Notes under the pieces: model-generated
Seen by the model: the letters and a program-made list of their open reading frames with translations, nothing else
Told to the model about the DNA's origin: nothing
Databases searched by the model: none
Shown here: one piece after another, positions 60,933 to 62,704 of the stretch
How the letters are laid out: every line of letters starts with the position of its first letter
Numbering within the stretch: the first letter of the stretch is position 1
Assembly: GCA_014238615.1 (NCBI GenBank)
Contig: JABAAT010000007.1
Location: forward strand, 40,736 to 104,735
Source of the DNA: Gammaproteobacteria bacterium
GTDB taxonomy: Bacteria > Pseudomonadota > Gammaproteobacteria > Porifericomitales > Porifericomitaceae
Direction of reading: 5' to 3'
Length of the DNA: 64,000 nucleotides
Translations under genes and position numbers: made by a program

Positions 60933-61514
60933 ATGATTCTGTTAGTGAAGGCCGGTGCGGACCCCAATACGCGGGCCGGCTACGGCGACACGTTGCTGAT
61001 CATCGCGGCGGACGTTGACCTCGGAGCGGAAGTCGTCAGGCAGCTGGGTTTGGGAGGCCGGGGCGGGGGTCCTGAATGAAGAGACAGTGAAGGCGGCTAT
61101 ACGGCCCTGATGCTCGCGGATGCTCGCGGCGGGAGAAGGGAACGATGAAGTCGTCAAACTCCTGCTGGAGGCCGGGGCGGCTCCGAACGCGCAAGAGAAG
61201 TCCGGCCATGTCGGCAGTCCGGCCATGTCGGCACCGCGCTGAAGAGCCCGGTTATCAAGGGAGTACGATTGAGTCGTCAAGCTCCTGCTGAAGGCCGGGG
61301 CGAACCAAAACACACGAACTAAGTATGGCGCTACGCTGCTGATGCCCGCGAGCGTCCGACGGGTACGATGAAATCGTCAAACTCCTGCCGGCCCGCGGAT
61401 GCGGACAGCAACGCACGGGACGCGGATGGGCGGACAGCGTTGATGCTCGCGGAGGAAAAAGAGCATACAAAGACTGCGGACCTACTGAGAGCCGCCGTCC
61501 CGCAACAGGAATGA
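60933..61514 (+). pseudogene. ankyrin-repeat protein pseudogene (multiple frameshifts and stops)
   Basis: In shifting frames: MILLVKAGADPNTRAGYGDTLLIIAA, GNDEVVKLLLEAGAAPNAQEKSGH, YDEIVKLL, DADGRTALMLAEEKEHTKTADLLRAAVPQQE*. A 17-bp tandem duplication GTCCGGCCATGTCGGCA and single-base indels break the frame. Confidence 0.6.
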
Positions 61515-61989
61515 CCATGAATCGGCAGCCCGTTCACGGCAGCCCACTCACGGGTTGGTCGGCGGATAAGTTCCCGTAATGGATTGTGCACCGTGACGTC
61601 GCCAGGGGGGATGAGGCCATGACGAGTACCATGGCCTGGCTGACCGTGAAGCATCTCTGAGTGATGGCGGAAGGCAATTGAATCGATGCCTGGGATTGAC
61701 AGACCAGGTCATTGAAGATACTGAAAGCGCATGGGAAGAAGATGGTTCCAACCACCATAGTCACGATAACTACGATAATAATAATGATAAATAATGATGA
61801 ATATAGTGAATATGATGAATGATAACGATGAATCATCCCATTTGCAGTGCAGTCCCGGCGTCGCTGTCACAGCGGCACCGAGATACTCACCCCCATGTCG
61901 GCAAGGCCGCGTGCCGCCGCCGCTTTTCCCATCAGCCCCCTGGGGTCGACGCCCGCTTCCAATAAGTGCTGGAGAATTGCCTCAAAGAT

Positions 61990-62265
61990 TTTTGTTCACC
62001 TTGTACTCTTTGTCCCGCATGTATCACCAACCCAACTCTGGATCTTCGTACCATTCTTCCGCTGCGAACATCAGCAGGGTCTTGCTGTCCTTGTCTCTTG
62101 CGTTCGCTTCCGCACCCGCCCCCAGTGACGGTTGGCGGCCTTCTTGTTCCCAACGCAGGCTGCCTGCATTAGCAGCGTCTTGTCGAACTCGCCGCCCCCC
62201 GCCTGCGCATTCAAGTTGGCACCGACCTCCAACAGGGCCTTTCCAGGGGGAGAAGGTTATCTACG
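61990..62265 (-). pseudogene. ankyrin-repeat remnant on the minus strand
   Basis: The minus strand reads LLEVGANLNAQAGGGEFDKTLLMQAACVGN and, after a frameshift, ARDKDSKTLLMFAAEEWYEDPELGW*. Confidence 0.4.
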
Positions 62266-62704
62266 GTGCAGGTTGACTCATTTTGCTCGCTCCACGTGGC
62301 GGCTATGGGTAGCCAATGGCTGTTCGGAGAGCCGGCCAGCCGCCCACTCTTCGGTTTCCTCTCTTAACTGCTGGGCTTTCTTCCTCAGTTCATTAGCCAC
62401 CCGCTTGATATTCTCCCGCCGCATGCGCCGTTCTTCCTAGTAGAGGTCGTTGTTGTGCTTGCGATCCCTATCGGCCTCCAAAATCTTCCACCTGTAACAA
62501 CCTGTAACAACACTGAATGCTTCCTAATACTCTCCGGGGCCGGACTCTACTGCGCCGCACCCTTTTTACCAACATACTTTGTGAGGGGCTGGCCCCACCG
62601 CCCGGCTCCTAAGGAAGTGTGTTGATTTTTTAGTACAGTGCAACACGCCGGATGCTCTGGGCTAACTAAACGGGCATTTGACAGGGACGGCGGGAACGGC
62701 GATC

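Follow-up and report, generated by a model that had tools for sequence, protein, structure and literature searches.

In Wolbachia, Rickettsia and Legionella, ankyrin-repeat (ANK) gene families differ in the number of their repeats and are frequently reduced to pseudogenes; their members are effectors of alphaproteobacteria or of Legionella with ties to type IV secretion or to prophages. Here we analyse a stretch of 64,000 nucleotides from a gammaproteobacterial contig (JABAAT010000007.1; hereafter the window, numbered from its first letter), in which one locus very probably represents the non-functional remains of two convergent ankyrin-repeat genes, one on the plus strand (60594-61514) and a two-repeat fragment on the minus strand (61982-62244). 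Bacterial ankyrin proteins are treated as host-interaction factors that may spread horizontally, and for host-associated bacteria it has been proposed that such proteins disturb processes of the host cell (PMC10947273). Similar to such proteins (PF00023/PF12796), including exported ones of sponge symbionts, the plus-strand gene encodes 33-residue repeats of the pattern G-TALM-AA...VVKLLLEAGA-PNA and a hydrophobic N-terminus; in contrast to them, it is dead, carrying at least ten lesions, and its N-terminal 92 amino acids lack a homolog among 1.84 billion representative proteins. Like the Wolbachia, Rickettsia and Legionella families, it is a bacterial ankyrin gene broken by indels whose repeats are still alike in DNA, whereas Pfam and PHROGs scans revealed no link to a secretion system or phage and the N-terminus would rather point to Sec export. 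The plus-strand locus is thus a further dead member of a well-known family in which decayed genes are familiar.

First, we demonstrate that the plus-strand feature belongs to the Pfam clan Ank and that its identity is beyond doubt. In a three-frame translation of 60594-61514, ankyrin motifs are spread across all three frames, and the protein stitched together from these frames matches Ank_2 (E 1.1e-25, 90.4 bits, cut-off 27.3), Ank (E 8e-24, 82.8 bits, cut-off 21.1) and Ank_5 (E 2.3e-20, 72.9 bits, cut-off 27). The Ank_2 match starts at residue 98 and runs across the junction of a 14-bp insertion described below, and the repeats of human ankyrin-1/2 in the PDB match residues 93-282 with an E-value of 5e-69. 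Even an unstitched single frame passes the Pfam Ank threshold (28.2 bits vs a cut-off of 21.1). A tblastn comparison of intact ankyrin proteins with the region, which an earlier reading made from the letters alone (the sequence-only reading) had proposed as a check, was in line with these results: with 120 such proteins searched against the window, all 225 matches at E<=1e-3 lay on the plus strand between 60.5 and 61.5 kb. Chance low complexity as the source of the plus-strand match was considered and is ruled out, since the similarity lies far above chance.

The sequence-only reading had recognised plus-strand repeats at 60933-61514. These are ankyrin repeats, and the dead gene to which they belong begins 340 bp further upstream, at position 60594, with ATG ATG ATG placed 4 nucleotides past a GGAGG (60585-60589); it ends with AAVPQQE, followed by a stop codon at 61512-61514. 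The ancestral protein comprised about 290 amino acids. An N-terminus resembling a signal peptide was followed by some 60 residues of unique linker and then by six 33-residue repeats, which are still 81-87% alike in DNA. At the N-terminus, MMMTVNTLSVTRLRHWFKLVVGVLFPFLIG...AFA/S resembles a signal peptide as judged by eye, and the basic residues that precede its hydrophobic segment are consistent with export, although a frameshift sits within this segment. We therefore predict from the N-terminus that the ancestral protein may have been exported by the Sec pathway, and what is known of the family suggests that it would have served as an exported protein-binding scaffold of about 290 residues.

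Second, the plus-strand gene is heavily damaged. Instead of an uninterrupted open reading frame (ORF), 60594-61514 holds at least ten disabling lesions, namely nine frame changes (frame path, as coordinate modulo 3, 0>1>0>1>0>1>0>1>2>0) and one in-frame TGA, and in its present state it would be unable to make the ancestral protein. The interruption by indels that the sequence-only reading described is therefore genuine and goes beyond its list, to which our analysis adds a 10-bp duplication, the TGA and at least five more frameshifts. Short tandem repeats of 14, 10 and 17 bp are the visible cause of three of the frame changes. The first frameshift (modulo 0 to modulo 1) falls within or just past the signal-peptide-like segment and can be placed only to the interval 60640-60704, the sole overlap of the two open frames. 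Further downstream, a 14-bp insertion at 60928-60941 consists of AGAG and a second AATGATTCTG; this sequence, whose duplication at the 5' end had been noticed before, is present at 60919-60928 and 60933-60942 with AGAG between the copies, and cutting out the insertion joins ...RKDQFEKMIL with LVKAGADPNTR in one frame as ankyrin repeat 1. Likewise, dropping one copy of a perfect 10-bp tandem duplication at 61109-61129 (GATGCTCGCG, 2.1 copies) gives back TALMLAAGEGNDEVVKLLLEAGA. The in-frame TGA (61270-61272) lies in GAT TGA GTC GTC, where the neighbouring repeats read GAT GAA GTC/ATC GTC. Short tandem duplication is the dominant visible mode of damage in this gene, and given a density of about one lesion per 90 bp we infer that the gene died long ago. 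Programmed frameshifting can be ruled out, because the lesions are too many and include a stop codon.

The third repeat, a perfect 17-bp tandem array of AGTCCGGCCATGTCGGC (61199-61233, plus strand), is present in 2.06 copies in the window and is the site at which assemblies of this DNA differ. We compared the window with a 128-kb metagenomic scaffold of the same organism from ENA (ERZ23490334, BUSC20-1_SAMN14422897_METAG-scaffold_6) and with Logan contigs from the runs SRR11455660 and SRR11455656, to all of which exact protein look-ups had led. Identity to the window is 100% for the ENA scaffold over 48898-61233 and 61199-64000, and likewise for the Logan contigs of the two independently assembled runs over 59516-61228 and 61204-64000. 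Every lesion is therefore reproducible except for the copy number of the 17-mer, and the 10-bp duplication at 61109-61129, for example, is unchanged in the ENA scaffold and in the contigs of both runs. Within the array, the ENA scaffold (piece 12308-12560) carries six copies, a gap of 100 N and about three further copies; positions 1-2 of the six copies read AG, AG, AA, AA, AG and AG, two of them thus representing a G>A variant unit (AATCC...). All three Logan contigs terminate or begin inside the array, and de Bruijn assembly at k=31 breaks in this manner when an array holds at least three copies. Since the assemblies disagree on the number of 17-mers, the 17-bp tandem duplication of the sequence-only reading stands as a repeat and falls as a simple duplication: it is a tandem array of unsettled and possibly variable length. 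The difference in copies may reflect real population variation or assembler behaviour, and exact look-ups of two ORFs spanning the two-copy version matched no record.

Bacterial loci with variable-number tandem repeats (VNTRs), or minisatellites, serve typing by multiple-locus VNTR analysis (MLVA). Similar to such loci, the 17-bp unit is arranged head to tail, differs in copy number between assemblies and includes a variant unit; unlike typed VNTR markers, the array lies inside a pseudogene. With head-to-tail copies that vary in number from one assembly to another it qualifies as a VNTR, and we believe that this lesion would behave as a variable-number array. For users of the record, 61199-61233 should be regarded as assembly-unstable.

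Third, a second ankyrin gene has left a remnant on the opposite strand. Here, two repeats (62244-62125 and 62125-62024) are joined by one frameshift. An in-frame stop (62024-62026) comes next, and then a tail that reaches 61982. The first unit reads GKALLEVGANLNAQAGGGEFDKTLLMQAACVGNKKAANRH and the second, past the frameshift, LGAGAEANARDKDSKTLLMFAAEEWYEDPELGW-stop; the two are arranged head to tail with the expected spacing and motifs (GANLNAQ...KTLLMQAA; GAEANARDKDSKTLLMFAA). In support of its identity, the remnant attracted 89 high-scoring segment pairs (HSPs) when the ankyrin queries were run in tblastn at E<=10. In 300 dinucleotide shuffles the number averaged 1.7 and never exceeded 7, and none of them reached its top HSP score. 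The 89 HSPs are more than five times the number in any other 500-bp bin outside the plus-strand gene (at most 17 HSPs). Thus, the minus-strand remnant that the sequence-only reading placed at about 61990-62265 is borne out at 61982-62244, and we are highly confident that two ankyrin repeats, faint but genuine, survive here.

Directly upstream of the minus-strand piece lies a remnant of a second family (family-2; 62278-62493, minus strand), a short coiled-coil-like ORF (..ILEADRDRKH..-stop-..RRENIKRVANELRKKAQQLREETEEW..) with an in-frame stop at 62437-62439. As the sequence-only reading proposed, it is a paralog of another copy in the window, a 66-residue ORF on the plus strand (53960-54160) with an internal tandem duplication (DRKHESSGE twice). 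The DNA of the two copies matches at 78-83% identity (62344-62432 vs 54139-54051 and 62456-62496 vs 53997-53957) and their proteins at about 55%, while neither copy matches a Pfam or PHROGs family. The remnant shares its frame with the first minus-strand ankyrin repeat, with only stop codons between them, and the two segments may possibly once have formed one fused ORF; because a shared frame would arise by chance in one of three cases, such a single ORF is unproven.

Several observations weigh against the reading of the locus as two dead ankyrin genes. No specific intact ortholog was found in the protein, JGI metagenome or HMMER searches. A word search of 5.8 billion proteins returned thousands of generic ankyrin matches of 30-50% identity that covered the repeats only, none reaching into the N-terminal 92 amino acids, and a scan of JGI metagenomes gave generic ankyrin matches only, at 34-44% identity. 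In an exhaustive HMMER search of the 1.84 billion representatives, the N-terminal 92-residue ORF (60658-60933) found only this genome's own fragment. The original architecture therefore rests on one decayed copy, and the signal peptide on our judgement by eye. In addition, the assemblies do not fix the genomic copy number of the 17-bp repeat (two vs six and a gap), and the stitched minus-strand piece scores under the Pfam gathering cut-offs (Ank_2, E 2.7e-4, 21.9 bits vs 27.3; Ank, 18.6 bits vs 21.1). The sequence-only reading would have given up its view if there were no intact homolog anywhere and the ankyrin-like matches were due to chance; as regards a specific homolog the former is what we found, and the latter does not hold. 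The ankyrin homology, the lesions, their recurrence in independent assemblies and the lack of a close intact ortholog are shown; what we say of export, of the role of the ancestral protein and of when and in which order the lesions arose is inferred.

A wider view of the window helps to judge where this locus came from. Its first 50 kb hold intact core genes, among them gltB, pilQ, mrcA, priA, argS, valS, uvrA and glyS as well as cytochrome bc1 and a sigma-54 response regulator. For cytochrome b, a single relative reaches 89% identity (ENA ERZ20067936, contig ptg000381l), and the remaining matches, which where named are labelled as metagenome-assembled genomes of Gammaproteobacteria (or Thiotrichales), do not exceed 72%, so the window comes from a gammaproteobacterium that is uncultured and poorly sampled. 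Searched by sample and run accession, the literature yielded no host or habitat for it. For comparisons with the relative we used 21 kb of ptg000381l; its DNA is 76-78% identical to that of the window organism and it is rearranged at the junction of the ankyrin zone. No further ankyrin sequence was detected in the window, in the next 6 kb or in these 21 kb. The ankyrin zone itself is part of a 13-kb gene-poor stretch (50.5-63.7 kb) that extends from the regulator gene to the pilus secretin. The left boundary of the ankyrin zone is an intact porin gene (Porin_4; 58898-60226, plus strand), so that the locus would read, in order, as an intact porin gene, two convergent dead ankyrin-repeat genes and an MSHA-type pilus operon.

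The sequence-only reading went further and regarded the region as an old accessory island whose ankyrin genes were horizontally acquired effectors. This proposal, in which imported host-interaction ankyrin effectors later decayed, adds to the pseudogene reading, and on present evidence we find it possible, if doubtful. It draws on the GC content, which is 63% in the window as a whole, 54-58% across the porin, the ankyrin remnants and family-2 and 54-59% in the gene-poor stretch vs 65% in the core, and on the porin itself, whose best relatives in a synteny search of GTDB genomes belong to other lineages and are merely 33-51% identical, with no close relative among them. It is also in line with the discussion of ankyrin proteins as horizontally spread symbiosis factors (PMC10947273), and with the arrangement in the nearest relative, where the MSHA-type pilus operon directly adjoins the sigma-54 regulator gene in the opposite orientation. 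The DNA of the ankyrin zone is therefore absent there, and the 13-kb stretch is lineage-specific at this junction and associated with an inversion. However, the relative is only 76-78% identical in DNA and rearranged at this site, which makes absence at one junction weak evidence for an island. Moreover, six-frame Pfam and Pfam/PHROGs ORF scans of 50.5-63.7 kb found no integrase, transposase, phage or plasmid genes or remnants, and tRNA and Rfam scans found nothing in the zone, the only tRNA of the window lying at 20279-20352; the zone thus has neither the mobility genes nor the tRNA boundary of a genomic island. The GC content of the core pil operon (55.7%) is as low as that of the zone. The lower GC content and the absence from the relative's junction lend the earlier proposal partial support; an island with horizontally acquired effectors goes beyond what they show. 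What is supported is a rearranged, decaying and variable region.

Far less probable is that the minus-strand match arose by chance in a GC-rich translation full of alanine, glycine and leucine. The sub-threshold score of the hand-stitched piece, an unstitched six-frame Pfam scan that gave no match at the remnant and a best single tblastn E-value of only 0.003 would all be compatible with such an origin, but it would not account for HSP numbers and a top score that none of the shuffles reached, nor for two head-to-tail repeats with the expected spacing and motifs. It is even more improbable that an inversion cut a single ancestral gene in two and left the two remnants as its halves. Although the surrounding 13 kb show signs of rearrangement, with the pilus operon inverted relative to the relative's and an inverted partial copy of the regulator upstream region, the plus-strand copy already has its own start and N-terminus, six repeats, a capping repeat at the C-terminus and a stop. 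The minus-strand piece likewise possesses a C-terminal tail and stop of its own, and at the DNA level the two resemble each other only in what is generic to the repeat. Least likely of all, the interruptions could be assembly or sequencing artefacts in an intact gene: the 17-bp repeat is indeed assembled differently in the window, ENA and Logan, making at least that site unreliable, but the other nine lesions are the same in the ENA scaffold and the Logan contigs of both runs, one lesion is a stop codon rather than an indel, and full-length housekeeping genes over the other 50 kb show that the assembly is not generally indel-prone.

Besides the two dead ankyrin genes, the zone contains a number of smaller features. 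Between the 3' ends of the convergent remnants lie an imperfect 14-bp tandem repeat just 3' of the pseudogene stop (61523-61553, 2.2 copies, 88% matches) and an AT-rich stretch, noted before and here placed at 61755-61835, with 26% GC and periodic repeats of 9-10 bp. Perfect 10-bp tandem duplications are found 34 bp upstream of the pseudogene start codon (60541-60560, ACGGGAAACA, 2 copies) and at the 5' edge of the family-2 remnant (62490-62511, ACCTGTAACA, 2.2 copies). An intrinsic-terminator-like hairpin (60269-60291) follows the porin gene, and a 45-bp motif on the plus strand (60337-60381; CCCCAYCGGCTCTYCCCTCYCCCGGTARGC...GCGCATC) is 82% identical to 63249-63293; of these two direct copies, the only ones in the window, the first precedes the ankyrin pseudogene and the second the gene for the pilus secretin. 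A search for homologs of the secretin did not return the relative's ortholog, the best non-self match being 49% identical. Beyond ankyrin, Pfam and PHROGs gave no match at 60.2-63.7 kb, nor for the ORFs of 50.5-58.9 kb. A small, apparently intact ORF at 62705-63001 has a lipoprotein-like signal (..LLAVCVLTASGC) and an internal imperfect duplication (KDFAVSTKDFAV) and matches no family.

On the other side of the porin, the 8.4 kb from 50514 to 58897 contain only small ORFs without family matches. A mosaic repeat family occurs here in four direct copies of 74-85% identity (51622-52189, 53411-53674, 55483-56175 and 57678-58187), one common segment of which would encode a conserved hydrophobic C-terminal tail on the minus strand (..RLTWCLVGLGALVIAGGAVPSCRPA-stop). 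Because no codon-position bias was found in the mosaic repeats (51.6-58.2 kb) or in family-2, the copies of both families look neutral. The upstream region of the sigma-54 regulator (50377-50529) has an inverted partial copy 4.5 kb away (55041-55190, 76% identity) which, together with the opposite orientation of the pilus operon in the relative, suggests an inversion breakpoint here.

Finally, the repeats that disabled the plus-strand gene may be part of a broader pattern. The 64 kb of the window hold 15 perfect tandem duplications of 10 bp or more, compared with about 0.07 expected in composition-matched random sequence. Their density per 10 kb amounts to 2.3 in the window, 8.5 in the 21 kb of the relative and 0.35 in unrelated loci (170 kb). 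In nearly all intergenic spacers of the relative we found arrays with units of 10-24 bp. Longer units are also present. An 83-bp unit (31794-32030, 2.9 copies, 99% identity) follows right after valS and takes in the 5' end of the gene that comes next (31972-32727); since 83 is not a multiple of 3, only its last copy is in frame. The product of this gene has an N-terminus that resembles a serine acetyltransferase. Past the end of the window, a 230-bp tandem duplication (1.9 copies; ENA scaffold piece 16453-16899) occupies the junction of the secretin gene and mshE, and a 230-bp duplication, also in 1.9 copies, is found at a different junction in the relative (piece 1810-2251 of its sequence). 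In both genomes the copies are 88-91% identical. Each duplication includes the ribosome-binding site and roughly the first 70 codons of a gene of the pilus operon, which in the window organism is mshE and in the relative a gene of 495 residues, and creates an ORF of 76-77 amino acids; the equal period may be a coincidence. In the relative, a fragment of glyA together with Band_7 and NfeD genes has also undergone tandem segmental duplication (15107-18674 and 19347-21224). The direct-repeat output for the window is topped by a pentapeptide-repeat gene (39450-40236) of about 30 consecutive 15-bp units (A(D/N)LXX).

We tentatively propose, while holding it as somewhat less than an even prospect, that the lineage formed by the window organism and its one known relative is unusually active in creating and expanding short tandem repeats, with units of 10-24, 83 and 230 bp. 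This possible tandem-repeat mutagenesis is the only aspect of our analysis with some novelty, and a modest one, proposed from the window and from 21 kb of the relative. Apart from this, our results correct the annotation of the locus, which in public gene calls appears as several small ORFs and which we read as one dead gene of about 290 codons starting at 60594 and a two-repeat fragment. Together with the 13-kb gene-poor zone around them, the ankyrin remnants offer a view, through neutral DNA, of the mutation spectrum in a poorly known lineage, a spectrum that appears to be rich in short tandem duplications. If our proposal is true, no fewer than three of the ankyrin gene's ten lesions would stem from the same process, which repeatedly duplicates the 5' ends of genes, and the 17-bp array would be a live example of it whose copy number is still varying.

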